Assembly (NCBI GenBank): GCA_016214005.1
Contig: JACRPK010000006.1
Coordinates: 17,719-81,718 of the forward strand
Direction of reading: 5' to 3'
Source of the DNA: Candidatus Wolfebacteria bacterium
Lineage (GTDB): Bacteria > Patescibacteriota > Minisyncoccia > UBA6257 > UBA9933
DNA: 64,000 nucleotides
Every line of letters begins with the position of its first letter. The first letter of the stretch is position 1. Of the stretch, positions 5,987 to 55,952 are shown piece by piece. A program made the position numbers and the translations under genes. Under the pieces are notes generated by a model that saw only the letters and a program-made list of their open reading frames with translations, was not told where the DNA came from and did not search any database.

Positions 5987-6070
5987 ATCCCCGCATAAAA
6001 CCTCGCTAATTTCGCCATTGACTTTTTCATTTTCCCAAGTATAATATAGTGTAGAAACTTTGAAAAATAA
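5987..6070 (+). promoter_or_regulatory. promoter cassette copy D (TTGACT 6018-6023, 16 nt, TATAAT 6040-6045)
   Basis: Repeat family member. Followed by type-II leader ACGCATCCCTGCCTGCCGGCAGGCAGGTTTGTGAATGTGTTAATAAGAAAACCGG. Confidence 0.6.
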
Positions 6071-6077
6071 CGCATCC

Positions 6078-6097
6078 CTGCCTGCCGGCAGGCAGGT
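6078..6097. repeat. 20-bp perfect palindrome CCTGCCTGCCGGCAGGCAGG (copy 1 of 4)
   Basis: Identical palindrome at 11152..11171, 41542..41561 and 55922-ish (core CCTGCCGGCAGG). Confidence 0.6.
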
Positions 6098-6136
6098 TTG
6101 TGAATGTGTTAATAAGAAAACCGGACTTCATATTTT

Positions 6137-6154
6137 GCTATCACTAATGATAGC
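6137..6154. promoter_or_regulatory. 18-bp palindromic operator-like site GCTATCACTAATGATAGC (copy 1 of 5)
   Basis: Same palindrome (GCTATCAC yRr GTGATAGC) at 25155, 42593, 43143 and 43461. Confidence 0.45.
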
Positions 6155-6192: not shown

Positions 6193-6576
6193 ATGGGTGG
6201 ATATTCTGAAAAAGATGCGGCAAAAGATACTAATTCTAGTATGAAAGAAACAAAAGATGCTTGGCATACTGCAAGAGATGATGCTGCTGAAGAAGGCGAT
6301 TGGGGTGTGCCAAAAGACAGACATGGTGAAGGATGTTTTATAGCGACTGCGGCTTATGGAAGCTATTTCGAGCCTCACGTAAAAATTCTCAGGGATTTTA
6401 GAGATATTTTTCTTGTGGAGAGTATTTTGGGAAGATTATTCATAAAAATTTATTATTGTATCAGTCCGTTTATTTCCGGTATTATTGAAAAAAGTGAAAT
6501 TTTAAAGAAAATTATGCGAATAATTCTTTCGCCGATAGCATTGTTGATTGAACATATATTTATAAAGCGCTTTTAA
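6193..6576 (+). CDS. 127-aa protein: N-terminal hydrophilic DW-motif peptide region fused to a C-terminal GCFIATAAYGS…LRDFRD…hydrophobic module
   Basis: N-terminal 47 aa are homologous to the 4399 peptide. C-terminus carries CFIATAAYGS followed by LRDFRD and a hydrophobic stretch. I recall this as a conserved C-terminal module of secreted/anchored proteins but cannot name the family with certainty. Confidence 0.5.
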   Translation: MGGYSEKDAAKDTNSSMKETKDAWHTARDDAAEEGDWGVPKDRHGEGCFIATAAYGSYFEPHVKILRDFRDIFLVESILGRLFIKIYYCISPFISGIIEKSEILKKIMRIILSPIALLIEHIFIKRF

Positions 6577-6610
6577 GCGCTTTTTATTTTGGCAAAATTA
6601 TTCATAATAT

Positions 6611-6895
6611 GTGATAATAATAAATATGGGAAAAGAAAATCAAAAAAATCCTGCCTGCGTTATTTTGTGGCAAGATGCGGCATATTCATATGAGAAAGAA
6701 TTTCCGAAAGAATTTCCATTGCCACAATTAACAGCTGGTTTTATTATTTCCGCTAATGATGAAGACGATTTTATAAATATTGCCATGAATGTTGAATATG
6801 ATGAAAAAACCGGTAAATTATATCCGCTCGATGGATTTTTAATACCAAAAAAATCGAAAATTGAATTCAGGAATATGGGATTTTTTAATGAATAA
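6611..6895 (+). CDS. hypothetical protein, 94 aa
   Basis: ORF with ATG start. No recognisable motif. Confidence 0.35.
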   Translation: MIIINMGKENQKNPACVILWQDAAYSYEKEFPKEFPLPQLTAGFIISANDEDDFINIAMNVEYDEKTGKLYPLDGFLIPKKSKIEFRNMGFFNE

Positions 6896-6900
6896 AATTT

Positions 6901-7161
6901 ATGGATAAAAAGAGAATTAAAGTTTATTGGGCAGACGCTGTATTTTATAAAAAGAGTAAAAATATTGGCGATGGTCTGACTAAAATGATAACTATTGGGG
7001 AATTATTCATTGAAAATGAAAAATTTATTGTGATAAAATATCCAAAATCAATTAAAGAAAATAAGCCATTATTATTTCAATTATTTAAGAGATTCTTATC
7101 AAAAAAACCCACTTACTTATTTATTCCCCGCGGAATGATAAGAAACATTATTTTATATTAA
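6901..7161 (+). CDS. hypothetical protein, 86 aa
   Basis: ORF with ATG start. No recognisable motif. Confidence 0.35.
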   Translation: MDKKRIKVYWADAVFYKKSKNIGDGLTKMITIGELFIENEKFIVIKYPKSIKENKPLLFQLFKRFLSKKPTYLFIPRGMIRNIILY

Positions 7162-7164
7162 TAT

Positions 7165-7275
7165 ATCCCCGCATAAAACCTCGCTAATTCCCCCCCCATT
7201 AACTTTTTTGTTTTCGTGAGTATAATACAGTGTAGAAACCTTGAAAAACACCAGTTCTAAGGTTAGAAACTGGTT
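7165..7275 (+). promoter_or_regulatory. promoter cassette copy E (TTAACT 7199-7204, 16 nt, TATAAT 7221-7226) plus hairpin leader
   Basis: Repeat family member. Confidence 0.6.
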
Positions 7276-7310
7276 AAAAAAAGAGAGAAAAGAAAGAGAG
7301 GATAAGGAAA

Positions 7311-8444
7311 ATGGTTGAATCGGCTATTGTTACATCACCGCTTAAAACAATGGTTCCAATCATTAAGGTGGTGGGCGATTTTTGCAATTTAAATTGCAAA
7401 TATTGTTTTTATAATGCCAAGGACCAGATTATCCGCCATGTGATGAGCAATGATTTGCTTGAAAAATTTTTTAGCGAGTATCTAGATCTTTTTTCTGGCA
7501 ATCTTTTTATTATTTGGCATGGAGGAGAGCCTCTTCTCGCAGGACTTCGATATTTCGAACATATTGTTGAACTTGAAAAGAAATATCTCAAAAAAGGCCA
7601 AACGATTAAAAACGCCATTTAAACAAATGCTACATTGGTAAACGATGAGTGGGCGCAATTTTTTAAAGCGCATAATTTTAAAGTTGGCGTAAGTTTAGAC
7701 GGCGGACAAGAAAGTCATAATCTATTTCGCAAAAATCATGGAGGGAAAGGTTCTTTTGATCATGCTATGCGAGGAATTAAAATACTCCGTCGTTATGGAA
7801 TAGAGCCTGGGATTATTCAAACTTTGACTCGCGCCAATATTTCGCGTGTTCAAGAAGATTTCAATTTTTTTGTGAATGTTCTTGGAATCCATGCGTGGGG
7901 AACAAATTTTTATCTTGATCTTGATAATATTAATCAGCTCATGCTGGATCAGAATCTTACCAATTGTCAGCTTGCGGATTTTTTGAGAAAACAAATTGAT
8001 CTTTGGCTTGTTCGAAATGATAGAACTTTACGCATTAGAGAAATAGAAAATTTTATTTCTGGCGTGTTTAATAAAAAAACGCCAAGTTGCGCTTTTAGCG
8101 GATCTTGCAGTAAATATTTTTGTCTTGAATACGATGGCAAAATATATCCATGTGATAGATCTTCTGGCAAGTCAGATCTGTTATTGGGAGATTTCTCCAG
8201 ACAATCGTTGCAAGATGTTTTTAATAGCGTGAGCAAATTAAATTATGATAAGCAGATTAATAATTTGCCATCTGAATGTTCAATTTGTGAATGGCTGAAG
8301 TTTTGCAATAATGGATGCGTTATGAACAGGGAAGGCGGGATTGGCGGTAAATATTATTATTGCGAGATGCGAAAAGAGATTTTTGCTTATCTTAAAGAGA
8401 AAGTTGGCGAATATAATCGATCACTTATAACACAAACCGCCTGA
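7311..8444 (+). CDS. radical SAM / SPASM-domain peptide-modifying enzyme (anSME-like), interrupted by an in-frame TAA at 7620-7622
   Basis: CxxxCxxC (GDFCNLNCKYCFY) at residues 25-32, followed by GGEPLL. C-terminal Cys cluster CSKYFCLEYDGKIYPCD…CSICEWLKFCNNGCV matches SPASM. Both halves are in the same frame. The TAA falls where the conserved Q of the (I/V)QTNGTLL motif is expected (here AI*TNATLVNDEW). Confidence 0.75.
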
Positions 8445-10443: not shown

Positions 10444-10573
10444 CTCCACACGGCACGCGAGTAGCATCTGCCGCCAAGGGATACCCCTTGGCGGCAGATT
10501 TAATTTTAAAACCAGGTATAAAATAGGCACATCAGGGGATTTATGAATAGCATTAGAACCCACCCCCTTGTAT

Positions 10574-11087: not shown

Positions 11088-11171
11088 GTCCATTGACTTT
11101 TTCATTTTCCCGAGTATAATATAGGGTAGAAACTTTGAAAAATAACGCATCCCTGCCTGCCGGCAGGCAGG
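11088..11171 (+). promoter_or_regulatory. promoter cassette copy G (TTGACT 11093-11098, 16 nt, TATAAT 11115-11120) with type-II leader containing the 20-bp palindrome
   Basis: Repeat family member. Confidence 0.6.
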
Positions 11172-11272
11172 TTTGTGAATGTGTTAATAAGAAAACCGGT
11201 ACTACTATTGATAGTAGTGCCAAAGATATTTCAGACAAAGAAAGAAAAGAAAAAGAAAGAGAGGATGGGAAA

Positions 11273-12253
11273 ATGAAAGAAGCAATTCTTATTTTAACTA
11301 ATTCCGAAGATGGTAAACATACGGATGTTGTGCTTGAGAAACTTCAACAGGCTGATCAGAATGTTTTTCGTTTTGATTCAGATCGTTTTGCAAATGGTGA
11401 GATTATAATTGATTTTGAGAATAACCATCGGAGATGCGAATTTGCGATGTATTCTCATGATCAAGTGATAAATTCAAGAAATATTAAAAGTGTTTGGTAT
11501 CGTAGGCCTAATCATTTTAACTTGCAAATTCAAGATCTCGTTCAGCGTAATTATGCCGAACAAGAGATTAAAAATTTGCTAGATGGATTATGGACGATGG
11601 TGCCGGATATTTTTTGGTTAAGCAATCCGAAAAGCCTTGAACAAGCGCGGAAAAAACTTTTTCAATTAAAACTTGCTCGCGAGCTTGGATTCTTAATACC
11701 AGAAACAATAGTTACCAATGACCCAAATCGTGTTCATGAATTTTTTAAGACCTACAATGGTAAGATAGTTTTTAAAGCTTTTTATCATGAATTTCTAAAT
11801 TATGGAGATCGCGCATTTAATATTCCGACTACGCTTATAACAGAAAAACACCTAGAAAAACTTGAGCTTGTCAAGAAAATGCCATGTCTATTTCAAGAAT
11901 TTATCGATAAAAAATACGAGCTAAGAATAACGGTTGTAGGACAAAAAATTTTTCCAGTCAAAATTTATTCTCAAGAAAATTCTCAAACAACTGTTGATTG
12001 GAGAAATCCGGAGTTTATTAATAAACTCCGTTATGAAGTTGTTAGTATCCCAGAAGCGCTTGTTAAAACCTGTTTAACTATGTTGAATGAGCTTGAGCTT
12101 TCGTTTGGAGCTTTTGATTTTGTAGTTGATAAAATAGGGGAAATCTTTTTTCTTGAAATTAACCCTAATGGACAATGGTATTGGATGGAAAGTCAAACAA
12201 ATGTGCCAATTTCTGATGCCATTGTTGATATTCTAAGTTTAGAAAGGAGGTGA
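11273..12253 (+). CDS. ATP-grasp ligase (RimK/MdnC-like; candidate peptide macrocyclase), 326 aa
   Basis: N-terminal MKEAILILTNSEDGKHTDVV and central/C-terminal ATP-grasp regions (ELRITVVGQKIF…FDFVVDKIGEIFFLEINPNGQW). The called ORF begins inside the leader, so the start is set at 11273. Confidence 0.6.
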   Translation: MKEAILILTNSEDGKHTDVVLEKLQQADQNVFRFDSDRFANGEIIIDFENNHRRCEFAMYSHDQVINSRNIKSVWYRRPNHFNLQIQDLVQRNYAEQEIKNLLDGLWTMVPDIFWLSNPKSLEQARKKLFQLKLARELGFLIPETIVTNDPNRVHEFFKTYNGKIVFKAFYHEFLNYGDRAFNIPTTLITEKHLEKLELVKKMPCLFQEFIDKKYELRITVVGQKIFPVKIYSQENSQTTVDWRNPEFINKLRYEVVSIPEALVKTCLTMLNELELSFGAFDFVVDKIGEIFFLEINPNGQWYWMESQTNVPISDAIVDILSLERR

Positions 12254-24584: not shown

Positions 24585-25127
24585 TTATTTGGAGGAGGCC
24601 GACAAGAAAGTCGCCCAATGCACTTTCTTCTCCTTAAAGTAGTGGATTGCGCCGGTAACGTGGAAAATCCAGCGAGCTTTTTCTTGTCCCTTAATGTTAA
24701 AAACAGCCGTGTATTCTCCGGGAAGGAGATAGTCTTCTTGCTCTTTTTCCGAATCAAGGGTGTAGCTTGTGGAAAGGCCAGTACTGTTGTTGATTATAAC
24801 AGCGGTAACGGTTTCTTTCGTTGAATTGACCACAATTCCTTTGAATCCCATTGATATGCCATTTTCTGTCTTTGTCATTGTGGGCTGAGCATATAGTTTG
24901 GCCATGGCCGTGTCAAAGCCATCTTTTTTTTGGCGAAGACTCTCTTTTTCGTTTTGAATTTTCGCCATTTCCTCGGCATCCGAAAAACCGCTATGATCGC
25001 CGCTGTTGTATTGCTCTTCACTGCCGTAGCGAGCTTTACCGCCGACATAAGCAATCCCCAGGGCGCCGGCGCAAGCGTTGAGGCTAACGACCGCAAGTAT
25101 CAAAAACAGAAATGCAAATCTTCTCAT
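24585..25127 (-). CDS. hypothetical lipoprotein, 180 aa
   Basis: Signal + lipobox LNAC|AG. Higher GC than the surroundings. Operator palindrome 28 bp upstream of its start. Confidence 0.5.
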   Translation of the reverse strand: MRRFAFLFLILAVVSLNACAGALGIAYVGGKARYGSEEQYNSGDHSGFSDAEEMAKIQNEKESLRQKKDGFDTAMAKLYAQPTMTKTENGISMGFKGIVVNSTKETVTAVIINNSTGLSTSYTLDSEKEQEDYLLPGEYTAVFNIKGQEKARWIFHVTGAIHYFKEKKVHWATFLSASSK

Positions 25128-25323
25128 ATATCCTCCTTAAATTCCTTAAATGTTGCTATCACTAGTGATAGCGTTTATTATTGAGTTTTCAAAAAAATTT
25201 AGAGTTCTTTTTTTATGTCGCGATGTTTCGTTCCCTAAATTAAACTATAAAAAATATAGCATACCTTAATGCAAAAGTCAATAGTTGCAAAGGATAATCA
25301 AATTAGTTAAAATAATATAATCA

Positions 25324-34287: not shown

Positions 34288-34800
34288 TTATTGCTTGTTT
34301 TGATTATCTATTTTATGGAGACCATTTGCTTTGTCAATAAATAAAATTCCATTAAGATGATCTATCTCATGCTGAAAAACTCGAGCTTCTATTCCTTCTG
34401 CTTTAATTCTTATTTTTTTGTTGTTTTTGTCTCGACCGATTAAAGTGATTTTTTCCGGCCGCTCAACTTCGCCATAAATTTCTGGCACGCTTAAACACCC
34501 TTCTTCAACAAAAGATGTTTTTTCGGATGATTTTATAATTTCCGGATTAAAAATCGCGTAAAATTTTTCACCGATTATTTTATCGCCTTCAATTTTGGGA
34601 ATTTGAGCTATAAAAAATTTAAAATTCAATCCGATTTGATTGGCGGAAAGCCCGATGCCATTAGCTTTTATCATTGTTTCTTTCATTTGTTTTAATAATT
34701 CGTTAATTTCTTTTTTGGAAAATTTTGAGAAATCAAAATCCGCGGTCTTGGTCCGCAAGAATTTCTCTTCTTTTTTATTGTTGATTGTCAGAATTTTCAT
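34288..34800 (-). CDS. def: peptide deformylase
   Basis: EGCLSVP and QHEIDHLNG motifs. Confidence 0.9.
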   Translation of the reverse strand: MKILTINNKKEEKFLRTKTADFDFSKFSKKEINELLKQMKETMIKANGIGLSANQIGLNFKFFIAQIPKIEGDKIIGEKFYAIFNPEIIKSSEKTSFVEEGCLSVPEIYGEVERPEKITLIGRDKNNKKIRIKAEGIEARVFQHEIDHLNGILFIDKANGLHKIDNQNKQ

Positions 34801-35078
34801 TTTTTCTTTTTTAAATTTTTTAACAAATACGGATGGGTTTGCGTTAAAACTTTCATAAAATAACCGCCTTTATTTTCAATATTTTTTCTTTCGGAAACAT
34901 CTTTGGCGATGCTGAGCAAATGTTCATTATTATGTTCTTTGGCGAGCTTGATATAAAGAGCTTTGTGTTTTTCGTCATCAAGAAGCTGGGCGATCATTAG
35001 GCCTATCATTTGATATTTTCTGTAAACATGAGATTTTTTCCCGCGCTCTTTGAGAATTTCCAAATAATTTTTTTCCAT
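34797..35078 (-). CDS. hypothetical protein, 93 aa
   Basis: ORF overlapping def start by 4 nt. Confidence 0.4.
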   Translation of the reverse strand: MEKNYLEILKERGKKSHVYRKYQMIGLMIAQLLDDEKHKALYIKLAKEHNNEHLLSIAKDVSERKNIENKGGYFMKVLTQTHPYLLKNLKKKK

Positions 35079-35252
35079 AAAATTATTTTAGCATAAAAAA
35101 CTGATAAAAAAATTAGTAAAAAAATCGGCGTCCAGAGCGGAAAAATGCTCGTGGACGCCCTAGGGATGGGTGCTATCTTCGAATGAAGATAGCGGGTGGG
35201 CCGTATTTAAGAAATATATTAATAATATAAAATTATATTTTTTTATCAATAG

Positions 35253-35468
35253 TTATTTGGTGGTTTTGGCTTTGGCGCGGCGGGCTTTGAATTTTTCAAC
35301 TCGGCCAGCGGTGTCAATTAAATTTGTTCTGCCGGTAAAAAAAGGATGGCATTGGCTGCAAATTTCAACTTGAATTTCCGGGTTGGTTGAGCCGATGGAA
35401 AATTTAGCGCCGCAAGCGCATTGAATTTTCGCATTTTTATGATATTGGGGATGAACGTCTTTTTTCAT
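35253..35468 (-). CDS. rpmE: 50S ribosomal protein L31
   Basis: [10 protein letters not shown]…CxxC…[10 protein letters not shown] matches bL31. The ORF track extends upstream, but the start is set at MKKDV. Confidence 0.85.
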
Positions 35469-35739
35469 AATTTTGATAGTTTGAATACTATCACGGCTTT
35501 TTTCTCTTGACAAGGGGCAGGGCATTCATATAATGGGTAGATATCTGAAAACGGAACGAATCTGATTTTTGGAGAGAACTGATTTTTGGAGAGGACCTTG
35601 AAAAATTAAAAGTTAAAATTAAATCAGAATTTTTTTAGTTGTCCCAATTTTTATTCAAAATAGAAATGTAGTTGGTAGTGAGTAGCTGGCAAATTTTTGC
35701 TTTCTGCTTACTGCTTTCTACTTCTATTTTTATTTGAGA

Positions 35740-41430: not shown

Positions 41431-41575
41431 ATATAAAGATTAAAAATAAGATGCAGAAAAAAATTTTTATTAATATAAATATTTTTGATTTTATAAGAAA
41501 ACATGCGTTAATCTCTCCAGCGAGGAATTTGCGCTTGGCTCCCTGCCTGCCGGCAGGCAGGTCGACTTCGCTCGT

Positions 41576-41711
41576 CAAGAAAATATGTTTTTCAGAATGT
41601 CTCGGAAGGCTAAAAAGCTTGGTCTCCGAAGGAGTTTTTAGCCTGAGAGCCAAGCTCTTGATTTTTCGCTGGAAAAAATCAAAGAGCGGTTCTGAAAAAC
41701 ATATTTTCTTG
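41576..41711. mobile_element. MITE-like structured repeat copy 2 (with 20-bp palindrome flank at 41542..41561)
   Basis: Terminal inverted repeat CAAGAAAATATGTTTTTCAGAA / TTCTGAAAAACATATTTTCTTG. Internal GGCTAAAAAGCTTGGTCTCCGAAGGAGTTTTTAGCC hairpin. Confidence 0.6.
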
Positions 41712-41801
41712 GTATCATACCCGCTCGGTCTGCGTATGATTTTTTTAATAAAATCAAAAATATTTATATATCAAATTATAAAATATTACAGGAATAGTTT
41801 T

Positions 41802-42497
41802 GTGAATAATCGCGGACAAATTTTAACAGAGCTTATTGTTGCCATATCTATTACCGCCATTATTGTGGCGATTGGAGCGCAGATGATAGGCGTAAGTTTA
41901 TATTCGGCCGGATCTTCGGGAGATCGGCAAACCGCGAGCAGATTGTCCGAAGAAGTTTTTGAAGCGCTTCGCGCTATCACCCAAGGCAATGATGCGGCAA
42001 GTCAAGGCTGGAATAGGCTTTATTTGCCTCCGGACGGCAATGGCAATGCGTCAACTTCAAAAGGTGTGGCTAATCCGTATAAATTAACAATTGTTTCAAA
42101 TGCTTGGAAGGTTGCCACTGGCACGGAAGAAATTATTTTAGACGGCAATTCGTATTCTCGTTATTTTATTATTGAAAATGTTTCGCGAGCTTCTTCAACC
42201 GGAGCGATTGAAGATGTTTATAATCCCAGCAATGACGATCCGCATACTCAAAAAGTGATTGTAGATGTTTCTAAAATAAGCGGAATTGCCCAAGGCCAAA
42301 CGGACTTCGTTTTTTCGCAATATTTTACAAGATATTTAAATGAAGCCACGGCTCAAAATAATTGGACTCTTTCTGGTCAATGCGGTTCGGTAAGCGCCAC
42401 CTCAACTTCAATAGGAAATTGTTCAAATACTGGAGGAGATATCAGCAATTCATCTTGCGGCGGCGGAGTTTCTGCTTGTTTGAAAATTTCCCAGTGA
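41802..42497 (+). CDS. prepilin-type minor pilin (GTG start; the ORF track start lies inside the MITE)
   Basis: VNNRG|QILTELIVAISITAIIVAIG class III signal with Glu +5. Confidence 0.5.
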   Translation: MNNRGQILTELIVAISITAIIVAIGAQMIGVSLYSAGSSGDRQTASRLSEEVFEALRAITQGNDAASQGWNRLYLPPDGNGNASTSKGVANPYKLTIVSNAWKVATGTEEIILDGNSYSRYFIIENVSRASSTGAIEDVYNPSNDDPHTQKVIVDVSKISGIAQGQTDFVFSQYFTRYLNEATAQNNWTLSGQCGSVSATSTSIGNCSNTGGDISNSSCGGGVSACLKISQ

Positions 42498-42592
42498 TTT
42501 TTTCCGGAATTTTTTAAGCATTTTCTGAGTGATTTTTACAAAGCGATTTTAATAAAGCATTTTTTTAAATTTTTTATGTTTAAAATATTCTT

Positions 42593-42610
42593 GCTATCAC
42601 TAGTGATAGC
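42593..42610. promoter_or_regulatory. palindromic operator-like site TTCTTGCTATCACTAGTGATAGCAAGAA (28-bp perfect palindrome) upstream of the regulator gene
   Basis: Copy 3 of 5. Identical extended copy at 43139..43164, just downstream of the same gene. Confidence 0.5.
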
Positions 42611-42660
42611 AAGAATGATATAATTATTATATAATGCAATAAAATAAAAATAATAATTTT

Positions 42661-43131
42661 ATGGAAAATCTTTCTAATTTTAAATCAAGAAAAGAATGGG
42701 AAGAATTTATTTGGCATAAATTTTTAGAAGGTCTTAAGGATGCTAAAACAACGGGGCAGTTAAAAGAAATTTTAGAAAGCGTTTTAGACGGTCGCGAGAA
42801 AAATTTTATGATTAAGCGATTGATTGTGATTGCCTCAATCAGCCAAAATAAAACATATCGGGAAATCAGCGAACTTTTATGGCTGTCTCCGAATACAATT
42901 AGTTCAATTAAAAAAAGTTTATTTAAGAAAACAATTTATAGCGGTTATAAAAAATCAAATGCTAAATTTAATAAAAATAATAAAGAAGTTTCAAAGAAAA
43001 AATGGGGAGATGTCGCTTTTGATTTATTGGAATCATTTTCTCGCATTCCATTGCCGCCATTTATAGGAAAAAATCGCTGGCGTTATTTGGATGTAGATTA
43101 TCAAGACAAGATAAAATACGGTAAAAAATGA
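42661..43131 (+). CDS. TrpR/YerC-YecD-like HTH transcriptional regulator, 156 aa
   Basis: TYREISELLWLSPNTISSIKKSL helix-turn-helix as in the TrpR-related YerC family. Flanked by the palindromes. Confidence 0.55.
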   Translation: MENLSNFKSRKEWEEFIWHKFLEGLKDAKTTGQLKEILESVLDGREKNFMIKRLIVIASISQNKTYREISELLWLSPNTISSIKKSLFKKTIYSGYKKSNAKFNKNNKEVSKKKWGDVAFDLLESFSRIPLPPFIGKNRWRYLDVDYQDKIKYGKK

Positions 43132-43164
43132 TAAATTTTCTTGCTATCACTAGTGATAGCAAGA

Positions 43165-43545
43165 AAAGAGAGGGGGAAAAGATGGGGGAATGAAGAAAAA
43201 ATGAGGGGAAAAGATGGGGGGGGGAGAAAAGATGAGAAAATAAAGAAAAAATGGGGAAAAAAATAATAAAATTTTTTATTATCACTGATGATAACATGGA
43301 GAAAAGATATGGAAAAAAGAGAGATAAATAAAGAGAATATAAGAGAGAAAAAAGGGGGGGAGAAGAAGGTAATTGATGGGAGAGAAAATAATAAAATAAA
43401 TTAATCATTGCGCGGTATTGTTATAATTAATAAAAAATAGTAATTGATTAAAAAATAGATGCTATCACCAGTGATAGCGCTAAAAAGAAAAACAAGAGGG
43501 GGAGGGAAAACAAAGAATAAATTTAAGAATATTTAAGAATAAAAA
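43165..43545 (+). repeat. purine-only low-complexity tract with G-homopolymers and GAAAAGATGGGG repeats
   Basis: ~380 bp almost devoid of pyrimidines on the + strand. Contains G9 and G8 runs. Operator copy 5 is at 43461..43478. Confidence 0.6.
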
Positions 43546-43550
43546 ATAAA

Positions 43551-44540
43551 ATGGTTTATAAAAAGGAGAACAATTTAATGGAAAATAATTTTAATTTAGT
43601 TAAATATAAAAAATATGCCGCGGTTTTTGGAATTTTGGCGGCGATTTTTGTTATAACAAGCGCGGCGATGGCGTATTTATGGCAGAAAGCAGAACGAGTT
43701 AATGAAAAAGGAATAATGCGGAGTGATAAATTTAATTTACTCAATCCGGCGAGAAAATTTGTAAAACAGGAAGATTTGATTATCAATTTTCAGCCTCTGC
43801 GGAATTATTTGAATGACAAATACGAAGCCGACCCGAATGTTTCCATTTATTTTGAATACTTGCCGACAGGTTCTAACATATCAATAAATAAAGACGCGGA
43901 GTTTTGGCAGGCGAGCTTGCTCAAATTGCCGGTTGCGTTGGCAGTGGCGAAAAAAATAGAAAAAGGCGAGTGGAAATGGACCAATGAACTGGTGATTATG
44001 ACGTCTGATAAAAATGGCGGGTTTGGCGATTTGTATAAGAAGCCGATCGGAACAAAACTTACGATTGAAAAATTAGTTCAGCTTTCCCTTTCGGAATCCG
44101 ACAATACGGCGAATTTCGTTTTGGTAAGAAATTTAGAGCCTTCGGATTATCAGGATATTTATGATCATCTTGGCTTAAGCGATTTTTTGTCAAATGAAGG
44201 CAAAATAAGCTCCAAGAAGTATTCAGTAATGCTGCGGGCGCTTTACAATTCTTCTTATCTTTCGGATGAAAATTCTCAAAAGCTTTTGGATTTTTTAAAT
44301 GAAACGTTGTTTAAGGAATATCTTGGCAGCGGCTTGCCCGATGATATTGAATTTTCTCATAAAATCGGCGTAAGCGACGACCAAAAAGTTTTTCTTGATT
44401 CCGGAATTGTCTTTGTCAAAAATCGTCCGTATATTTTGACTGCTATAATTAAAACTCAAAATAAAGAATATGCCGAAAAAGTTATGAAAGATATTTCAGA
44501 AAAAACTTATCAATATATTATGAATTATAATAGTAAATAA
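43551..44540 (+). CDS. membrane-anchored serine beta-lactamase-like (class A / PBP-fold) protein
   Basis: SxxK (ASLLK), SDN (SESDNTA) and K(T/I)G (HKIGVS) in the canonical order, after an N-terminal TM. Confidence 0.55.
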   Translation: MVYKKENNLMENNFNLVKYKKYAAVFGILAAIFVITSAAMAYLWQKAERVNEKGIMRSDKFNLLNPARKFVKQEDLIINFQPLRNYLNDKYEADPNVSIYFEYLPTGSNISINKDAEFWQASLLKLPVALAVAKKIEKGEWKWTNELVIMTSDKNGGFGDLYKKPIGTKLTIEKLVQLSLSESDNTANFVLVRNLEPSDYQDIYDHLGLSDFLSNEGKISSKKYSVMLRALYNSSYLSDENSQKLLDFLNETLFKEYLGSGLPDDIEFSHKIGVSDDQKVFLDSGIVFVKNRPYILTAIIKTQNKEYAEKVMKDISEKTYQYIMNYNSK

Positions 44541-55816: not shown

Positions 55817-55952
55817 TTTTAAATTTGTATAATACAATCATATTTTGGATTTTATTCTCGCTAACGTTTCGCGCAAAAACACGCTATCATTTCGTTACAG
55901 GCGGAATGCGCTCGGCTCCATGCCTGCCGGCAGGCAGGTCGACCTCGCTCGC

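Follow-up and report, generated by a model that had tools for sequence, protein, structure and literature searches.

The regulator locus

The stretch of DNA analysed here (the window, 64 kb in length, with positions counted from its first base) comes from a metagenome-assembled genome (MAG) of a Candidatus Wolfebacteria, a member of the Candidate Phyla Radiation (CPR; Patescibacteria). These organisms are uncultivated, have tiny genomes and encode few regulators; to our knowledge, almost nothing is known about how they control transcription. The window contains the gene of a small helix-turn-helix (HTH) regulator, protein HZC33_01410, which lies between two long palindromes, the core of which recurs upstream of three other genes. 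The sites, their conservation and geometry, the fold of the protein and the juxtaposition of sites and promoter motifs were all obtained by computation. The features concerned are the following:

42587–42616, no strand: predicted upstream operator ATTCTTGCTATCACTAGTGATAGCAAGAAT, a 30-bp perfect palindrome with its 18-bp core at 42593–42610
42616–42624, plus strand: predicted extended −10 element TGaTATAAT of the regulator gene, the TG overlapping the last base of the palindrome arm
42661–43131, plus strand: regulator gene, 156 aa (TrpR-fold HTH at residues ~10–90, Lys-rich linker, C-terminal region with P-x-P...GKGRW)
43136–43167, no strand: predicted downstream operator, a 32-bp perfect palindrome with its core at 43143–43160, 11 nt past the stop codon
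43161–43460, plus strand: purine-rich spacer (GGA/GGGGATG-type), containing a 32-nt tandem repeat (x2.4) at 43161–43236
43280–43293, no strand: degenerate sixth palindrome TATCACTGATGATA, without the invariant C of CTA
43461–43478, no strand: predicted core operator GCTATCACCAGTGATAGC, 72 nt 5′ of the start codon of the beta-lactamase-fold gene (43551–44540, plus strand)
6137–6154, no strand: predicted core operator GCTATCACTAATGATAGC, one mismatch, 38 nt 5′ of the start codon of the CFI-box-CTERM gene (6193–6576, plus strand)
25155–25172, no strand: predicted core operator GCTATCACTAGTGATAGC in a divergent intergenic region, 27 nt 5′ of the start codon of the lipoprotein gene (24585–25127, minus strand)

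The element common to these sites is GCTATCAC-NN-GTGATAGC, and its copies begin at 6137, 25155, 42593, 43143 and 43461, exactly where a preliminary description of this DNA had placed them; with up to three mismatches allowed, 0.01 copies of the 18-bp element are expected by chance in the whole window and none of 100 shuffles gives five. The spacer had been typed there with 3 nt (19 bp), a form which matches nowhere; the true spacer is 2 nt and the element 18 bp. Within the window the arms of the palindrome are invariant and the central 6 bp differ (ACTAGT, ACTAAT, ACCAGT); the one mismatch of the 6137 copy is ATG for GTG, and the centre of the 43461 copy reads CA where TA would be expected. 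The 64 kb thus contain five to six copies, of which three are at the regulator gene. The two which bracket the gene, described earlier as perfect palindromes of 28 bp, are indeed identical over 28 bp and perfect even over 30 and 32 bp, respectively, while those at 6137, 25155 and 43461 consist of the 18-bp core alone, with unrelated flanks. The palindrome at 43280–43293, because it lacks the invariant C, is to all appearance a weak or decayed site. That the palindrome might be part of a larger dispersed repeat unrelated to promoters, a possibility raised in the same description, was rejected: the five copies share no larger repeat, their flanks being unrelated, and a 115-nt repeat found in the window stops 7 nt before the 6137 copy.

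A TrpR-fold protein of the CPR

The regulator passes the gathering score of the Pfam family PF01371 (Trp_repressor) with 31.7 bits versus 27 over residues 18–87, and the same domain is present in all of its homologues according to precomputed annotation. With the TrpR equivalog model TIGR01321 it reaches 23.6 bits, far below the cutoff of 67.25, and it was therefore rejected as a TrpR orthologue; nor is there a YerC/YecD (HisR) model among its NCBIfam matches at E ≤ 0.01. By family profile, the nearest natural sequences with a solved structure are 3FRW, 3KOR and 3G1C, which are “putative Trp repressors” of the YerC/HisR type. In the AlphaFold2 (AF2) model of the regulator, confidence is limited to the N-terminal ~90 residues (per-residue confidence, pLDDT, of ~80 over 10–90). 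When the model was compared to the PDB with Foldseek, the 31 best matches were E. coli TrpR (probability 0.99–1.00, target-normalised template modelling score 0.65–0.79), followed by 3FRW, 3G1C and 3KOR, and the N-terminal part superposes on E. coli TrpR, including the repressor-operator complex 1TRO, with a root-mean-square deviation of ~1.9 Å over 80 columns. Judged by family models and predicted fold, the regulator is a TrpR-fold protein (PF01371) from a Patescibacteria/CPR-specific branch of the TrpR/HisR HTH family, in keeping with the earlier naming of its gene as a TrpR/YerC-family HTH gene.

This branch is sizeable, comprising 215 clusters at 50% identity (E ≤ 1e-10), and among the papers listed by full-text literature searches (YerC/Trp repressor; Patescibacteria/TrpR/palindrome) none dealt with it. 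The recognition helix, SPNTISSIKK in the regulator, is almost invariant in the family as W(L/I)SPNTIS(S/A)IKK. The C-terminal ~65 aa, which have no counterpart in TrpR or HisR, consist of the Lys-rich linker, a helix and the conserved motif P-x-P...GKGRW(K/R)FL. A second TrpR-like paralogue was not found within the window.

Palindromes around the homologues

Homologues with 28–73% identity are encoded in Wolfebacteria, Harrisonbacteria and other Parcubacteria MAGs, and about 20 independent loci were compared (lineages are given below as L001 and so forth). In every one of them the regulator gene is flanked by palindromes on both sides; these share the geometry nCTAnn-N6-nnTAGn, and their sequence is lineage-specific:

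window and L001: CTTGCTATCAC..GTGATAGCAAG
L007 and L021: CTTGCTATCAT..ATGATAGCAAG
L010, L014, L016, L028: CTTGCTATCCTATAGGATAGCAAG
L017: CCACTATCC...
L030: CCACTATCAC...
L024: GCTACCGC-AT-GCGGTAGC
L025: GCTACGCTATAGCGTAGC
L022: GCTCTCCC..GGGAGAGC
L026: GCTTCCCTACAGGGAAGC
L009 and L023: ACTATAG-type
L031: up to nine copies, spaced at 85–130 bp

Most lineages have just two to three copies. The three-site layout is kept in L001 (73% identity), with one palindrome 5′ of the gene, one 3′ of it and one 49 nt before the orthologous beta-lactamase-fold gene. The palindromes around the gene are 550 bp apart in the window, 528–553 bp in L001, L007 and L010, and 919 bp in L014, and in roughly half of the lineages the downstream one follows the stop codon at a distance of 1–20 nt. 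In a metagenome-wide scan for GCTATCAYNNRTGATAGC, a homologue was present at 4 of 120 loci among the matches listed, most of the others being chance matches in unrelated contigs; in L037, L075 and L100 two exact matches bracket the regulator gene, and the matches listed revealed no regulon in close relatives.

The bases CTA/TAG are almost invariant, as is the recognition helix, and there are indications that protein and site vary together. Asn78 of the regulator aligns with the position of Ala80 in TrpR (alignment to solved sequences, read against the contact list quoted in PMC9413887). In the three lineages in which Asn78 is replaced the half-site CTAT is altered as well (Ser and CTAC in L024, Thr and CTAC in L025, Gly and CTTC in L026), and 16 of the 17 lineages with Asn78 also keep CTAT; the association has a Fisher p of ~0.01 when lineages are counted as independent and phylogeny is left uncorrected. 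This covariation is suggestive of direct read-out of the half-site by the helix. The proposal of the preliminary description, that the adjacent regulator is the candidate to bind the palindromes, therefore has gained strong comparative support: palindromes of the same geometry in every homologue locus, their juxtaposition with −10 boxes (see below), and the covariation of helix and half-site.

Identical 28-bp palindromes on both sides of a gene, a genomic context which differs among lineages, and the weak HTH_23/HTH_28 (transposase-type) matches on record for one homologue might also be found if the whole were a mobile or recombining cassette, either REP/RAYT-like or bounded by recombination sites, with the dispersed copies as its relics. 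Yet no catalytic domain (HUH/Y1, DDE, serine or tyrosine recombinase) was found in the protein, copies are very few, the gene order around it is preserved in part (pilus genes on the 5′ side in the window, L014 and L016; the beta-lactamase-fold gene on the 3′ side in the window and L001), and the palindromes diverge with the host lineage instead of spreading as one sequence, all of which makes a cassette of this kind most improbable. Assignment to the REP/RAYT-type elements proper was rejected, as the HTH domain alone was detected and five to six copies are present per 64 kb.

Two further observations concern the surroundings of the homologues. Lineages L022 and L027, which are both on contig CAZXNT010000003.1, represent two regulator paralogues ~14 kb apart, each with its own type of palindrome (GCTCTCCC..GGGAGAGC versus GCTATCCT..AGGATAGC); the pair offers natural material for studying how specificity diverges. 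Directly 3′ of the regulator and the downstream palindrome, an RrnaAD gene (rRNA adenine dimethylase, KsgA/Erm-type) is found in three lineages (L009, L029, L026; nearby in L013) and a Band_7/SPFH gene in two (L007, L021), so that the partner on this side varies from lineage to lineage and yet recurs.

Promoter context

The upstream palindrome of the window adjoins the extended −10 element at 42616–42624, one of just nine TGNTATAAT motifs in the 64 kb. The arrangement recurs elsewhere, TGnTATAAT being found in this position in at least six lineages when the window is included: it follows 4–8 nt past the upstream palindrome in L017, L030, L100, L013 and L025, and TGaTAGAAT does likewise in L001. 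Relative to the regulator's own predicted promoter the upstream operator covers about −41 to −15, which would be the classic position of a repressor. In L013, L100, L017 and L030 the −10 box is 6–11 nt from the ATG, so that the regulator mRNAs of these lineages would be leaderless or nearly so; the palindrome, which precedes the −10 box, would consequently not be transcribed from this promoter. For the three distal copies the best promoter-like motifs are:

6018–6045, plus strand: TTGACT-16-TATAAT, with the 6137 palindrome ~85 nt past the predicted start point
25281–25253, minus strand: TTGACT-17-(TG)TATATT, with the 25155 palindrome ~75 nt past the predicted start point
43419–43427, plus strand: extended −10 TGtTATAAT, candidate promoter of the beta-lactamase-fold gene, with the 43461 palindrome at about +27 to +45

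The position of the sites bears on another alternative, namely that they form a centromere-like or nucleoid-organising array (like ParB-parS, KorB or MatP-matS) which serves segregation or compaction and not promoter control. Such an array would fit with the clustering of sites around the gene, most pronounced in L031, with the few palindromic copies that are dispersed, and with a recognition helix that is invariant across a broad group. However, the upstream site is fixed beside an extended −10 box, where it would occlude the promoter, the distal copies are 27–72 nt 5′ of start codons, the typical lineage has only two to three copies, and no ParB/CTPase, ParA-interaction or RHH domain was found in the regulator; we regard a role of this kind as rather remote. 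A centromere of the ParB-parS type in particular was rejected, given the missing ParB domain and a palindrome sequence that is lineage-specific.

Arm length and hairpins

The palindromes are longer than their conserved core. Counted from the centre, self-complementarity is 93–100% at positions 3–9, 77–90% at positions 10–12 and 51–70% at positions 13–15, and falls to background beyond 16. Past 24 bp, 53% of the sites extend by at least 3 bp versus 1.7% in the null (p = 7e-27), with arms of up to 22 bp, and in L017, L030, L010 and L013 the two copies of one genome have different outer arms, each being self-complementary nonetheless. Candidate explanations for long and variable arms are selection for a hairpin or cruciform, a double role as transcription barrier, and template-switch “quasi-palindrome correction”, which is a neutral process.

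It could be argued that no protein is needed and that the palindromes function as hairpins in RNA or in single strands, terminating or insulating the regulator's transcription unit at its ends and stabilising the message or masking translation in the 5′ leaders of the other genes. The predicted hairpins are stable (−17 kcal/mol for the two bracketing copies, −8 to −11 kcal/mol for the distal ones); extension of the arms past 24 bp is non-random and variable in sequence, as selection at the level of structure predicts; the distal copies are within predicted 5′ leaders; and the downstream copy often follows the stop codon closely, as described above. Two copies, 43167–43136 and 43478–43461, were flagged as terminator-like by a simple scan, on the minus strand only. 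On the other hand, a consistent U-tract on the sense strand is absent after the hairpins (L007 has a sense-strand T-run 3′ of its downstream palindrome, but the window and most other lineages have none), and canonical intrinsic terminators find no clear support. Further, the upstream palindrome is outside the predicted regulator mRNA in L013, L100, L017 and L030, and in L030 the upstream neighbour is divergent, so that nothing reads into it; the arms are conserved in sequence across lineages, in contrast to the apical 6 nt, which vary; and hairpins would account neither for the strict co-occurrence with one protein family nor for the covariation with its recognition helix. Hairpins as the sole function are, in our estimate, very unlikely. 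Among imperfect copies the bias between G-U and A-C was mixed by eye and does not separate function at the RNA level from function at the DNA level.

Rfam gave no match at the palindrome sites or in the purine-rich spacer of the window. Comparable purine-rich spacers, with GGA/GGGGATG motifs resembling a Shine-Dalgarno sequence plus ATG, are present in L001 (5350–5445) and L031 (9786–9845 and 10572–10950), and in L031 the gene has repeats of a ~90-bp unit, made up of palindrome and spacer, on either side.

A probable autorepressing regulator and its candidate operators

The reading which we favour, and consider likely, is that the palindromes are operators of an autorepressing regulator of the TrpR/HisR family which is encoded between two of them, and that a few lineage-specific targets are controlled in addition. 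Binding, repression as its effect, the loop or roadblock and an effector are inferred. In a dimer of the regulator the two recognition helices would come to lie on GCTATC and GATAGC, the half-sites, with the poorly conserved 6-bp centre between them; TrpR and HisR operators have this 18–20-bp layout too, and the geometry of the sites fits a palindromic operator of that length. Since the upstream operator takes up the −35/spacer region of the regulator's own extended −10 promoter, the bound protein would be expected to shut off its own transcription. The second operator, past the stop codon, may cooperate with the first, be it by looping via the extra C-terminal region, as a roadblock against read-through into the next gene, or both, and at the core-only copies in the leaders of the CFI-box, lipoprotein and beta-lactamase-fold genes the same protein may hold these genes down, probably as a roadblock. 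RNA hairpins, a centromere-like array and a mobile cassette are disfavoured because the operator/−10 arrangement is fixed, U-tracts and catalytic domains are lacking, the copy number is low, and protein and DNA covary; even taken jointly, the three are unlikely.

Several observations weigh against this autorepressor. The distant L075 has Thr at the position of Asn78 and yet retains GCTATC, and the C-terminal third of the AF2 model is of low confidence. The self-complementarity reaches far past the footprint of an HTH dimer and the outer arms differ between copies within one genome, for which neither simple operator function nor contacts with a protein dimer would account. In three lineages (L013, L030, L022) the gene opposite the downstream palindrome is convergent; no promoter is expected there and the palindrome is therefore no promoter operator in these lineages. 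The gene 3′ of the regulator varies by lineage (beta-lactamase-fold, Band_7, RrnaAD, T2SSE, a toxin-antitoxin pair). With respect to the targets, no homologue of the lipoprotein 24585–25127 was found outside the source genome, and 5′ of the nearest CFI-box homologue (L152, 60% identity) there is no palindrome with this geometry, its locus being uninformative on site conservation. Finally, the distal sites do not lie on the best promoter-like motifs but past them, at about +85, +75 and +27, which suggests control of a roadblock type, or else weaker promoters that escaped recognition.

The long arms could be reconciled with regulation if the gene were part of a self-enclosed cassette, in which the C-terminal region (PxP...GKGRW) joins two operator-bound dimers and the gene is thereby kept inside a repression loop or an insulated domain, possibly with recognition of a cruciform; outer arms that are variable yet self-complementary would then be accounted for. 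We hold this to be doubtful; if true, it would be a Patescibacteria-wide regulatory architecture without a described counterpart in the TrpR family.

An autorepressor of this kind would be of use in several respects. It offers a circuit for study in vitro, consisting of a protein family, an operator rule (nCTAnn-N6-nnTAGn), extended −10 and often leaderless promoters, and natural specificity variants; it would extend the TrpR/HisR family past amino-acid repressors to envelope and secreted-protein genes, if the candidate targets hold; and it is unusual for a gene to be enclosed, and conservedly so, between palindromes that can form hairpins, which may be a sign of looping or insulation. Should the protein be merely an ordinary autorepressor, its value would be that of an annotation rule for CPR genomes.

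Candidate target genes

That the remaining copies sit just upstream of a CFI-peptide gene, a lipoprotein gene and a beta-lactamase-like gene had been claimed before and agrees with the distances given in the first list. The products are:

6193–6576, plus strand: CFI-box-CTERM domain protein (NF041770, family model match), candidate target
24585–25127, minus strand: orphan lipoprotein with signal peptide and LNAC lipobox, candidate target
43551–44540, plus strand: membrane-anchored serine hydrolase of the class-A beta-lactamase fold (PF13354, family model match), candidate target

The last of these scores 75 bits against a cutoff of 200 and stays below all cutoffs for bona fide beta-lactamases. 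Its translation begins with a membrane anchor and retains active-site motifs of the class-A type, namely S-L-L-K (SxxK), S-D-N, and K-I-G instead of KTG; it is probably a cell-wall-related serine hydrolase. The CFI-box-CTERM gene is the first of a possible cluster for a ribosomally synthesised and post-translationally modified peptide (RiPP-type; 6193–8444), followed by the small open reading frames (ORFs) 6611–6895 and 6901–7161 and by a gene resembling radical SAM/SPASM peptide maturases, which is apparently split by an in-frame stop (7311–7622 and 7635–8444).

Relation to known repressors

YerC is HisR, a histidine-dependent repressor of the TrpR family, the operators of which are 20-bp palindromes (cacTTTA-N6-TAAAgtg) with lineage-specific variants; about half of the hisR genes are preceded by their own site, that is, autoregulated, and 3G1C is named as a HisR (PMC9413887). 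The regulator of the window resembles HisR in several ways: it belongs to PF01371, with 3FRW, 3KOR and 3G1C as nearest solved sequences and next fold matches after E. coli TrpR; its palindrome is of ~20 bp with short conserved arms and a variable 6-bp centre (GCTATC-N6-GATAGC, as compared to TTTA-N6-TAAA); the motifs are lineage-specific; and autoregulation via a site before the gene, here predicted, is frequent. It differs in its length of 156 aa, ~65 aa of which form a C-terminal extension (HisR and TrpR are of less than ~100 aa), in its recognition helix (PNTISSIKK versus TATISRVNR), in its candidate targets, which are envelope and secreted-protein genes and not his genes, and in the second predicted operator that is always 3′ of the regulator gene. 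Membership in the HisR or YerC-YecD group was rejected: no YerC/YecD model matches, the arms are GCTATC and not TTTA, and his genes adjoin none of the palindrome sites in the window.

With E. coli TrpR, the gene of which is autoregulated, the regulator has in common the fold (the best structural matches in the PDB, including 1TRO) and a palindromic operator that overlaps the promoter, as predicted here; the additional C-terminal region and the operator arms set it apart. The TrpR operator is TGTACTnGTnnACnAGTACA, also given as TGTAcTnGTnnACnAgTACA (PMC9413887). By analogy, the regulator would work like a TrpR or HisR repressor and is a member of their Pfam family, yet it is neither TrpR nor HisR, because it passes neither of the two specific models, operator arms and candidate targets differ, and a C-terminal region is added.

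The preliminary description also saw a resemblance to operators of the tetO type. The half-site CTATCA/TGATAG is letter for letter that of tetO (TCCCTATCAGTGATAGAGA), though in the lineage of the window only. We regard the resemblance as coincidental, since CTATCA and TGATAG are separated by N4 and not by N1, the regulator has no TetR_N domain, and in sister lineages the half-site that goes with this protein is CTATCC, CTACCG, CTCTCC or CTTCCC.

The layout of one operator at the promoter and a second several hundred bp downstream (550 bp here) is reminiscent of LacI (O1/O2), GalR (OE/OI) and DeoR, and the regulator may work like these; its extra C-terminal segment could, by analogy with looping repressors, mediate contact between dimers. 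However, LacI, GalR and DeoR are of unrelated protein families, and in the present case the auxiliary operator is past the stop codon, the whole gene is enclosed, and the spacing is not conserved throughout. As far as its sequence features go, the system follows the TrpR/HisR repressor-operator theme in a form of its own that is specific to the CPR, and its self-bracketing architecture is both conserved and unusual.

Other repeats and palindromes of the window

A module of ~115 nt, made up of promoter and leader, is present at 6015–6129 and at 11090–11199 with two mismatches; it contains TTGACT-16-TATAAT, the GC-rich hairpin CCTGCCTGCCGGCAGGCAGG, and TTTGTGAATGTGTTAATAAGAAAACCGG. The first copy precedes the CFI-box-CTERM gene and the second an ATP-grasp ribosomal-peptide maturase gene (11273–12253; 249 bits with TIGR04187, which is below cutoff). 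In the place which the predicted operator at 6137 takes behind the first copy, the second copy has another 18-bp palindrome, ACTACTATTGATAGTAGT (11201–11218); as this keeps the family-invariant CTA/TAG geometry, it may be the site of an unseen paralogue of the regulator. The palindrome CCTGCCTGCCGGCAGGCAGG occurs four times (0 expected), at 6077–6096, 11152–11171, 41542–41561 and 55919–55938, in two different contexts of ~70–115 nt, one copy being 300 nt 5′ of the RNase P RNA gene.

Upstream of the regulator, the first ~110 codons of ORF 41451–42497 (41451–41780) look non-coding and contain the GC-rich dispersed repeat just described, and a pseudopilin N-terminal methylation motif begins at residue 119; the true start is probably near 41790, which would leave an intergenic region of 350 nt within the pilus cluster. 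Another palindrome, GCTATCTTC-GAAT-GAAGATAGC at 35172–35193, has the outer hexamers of the operator around a centre of 10 bp and not 6 bp; it is in the gap between the minus-strand ORFs 35253–35525 and 34797–35078, ~560 nt before the 16S rRNA gene. The former ORF presumably encodes ribosomal protein L31. An everted GATAGT-N6-ACTATC is found at 35474–35491, near a strong promoter-like TTGACA...TATAAT of the rRNA genes. The 34-bp palindrome ATCTGCCGCCAAGGGATACCCCTTGGCGGCAGAT, with arms of 15 bp, has no relation to the operator; it is located at 10466–10499, where several ORFs of either strand overlap.

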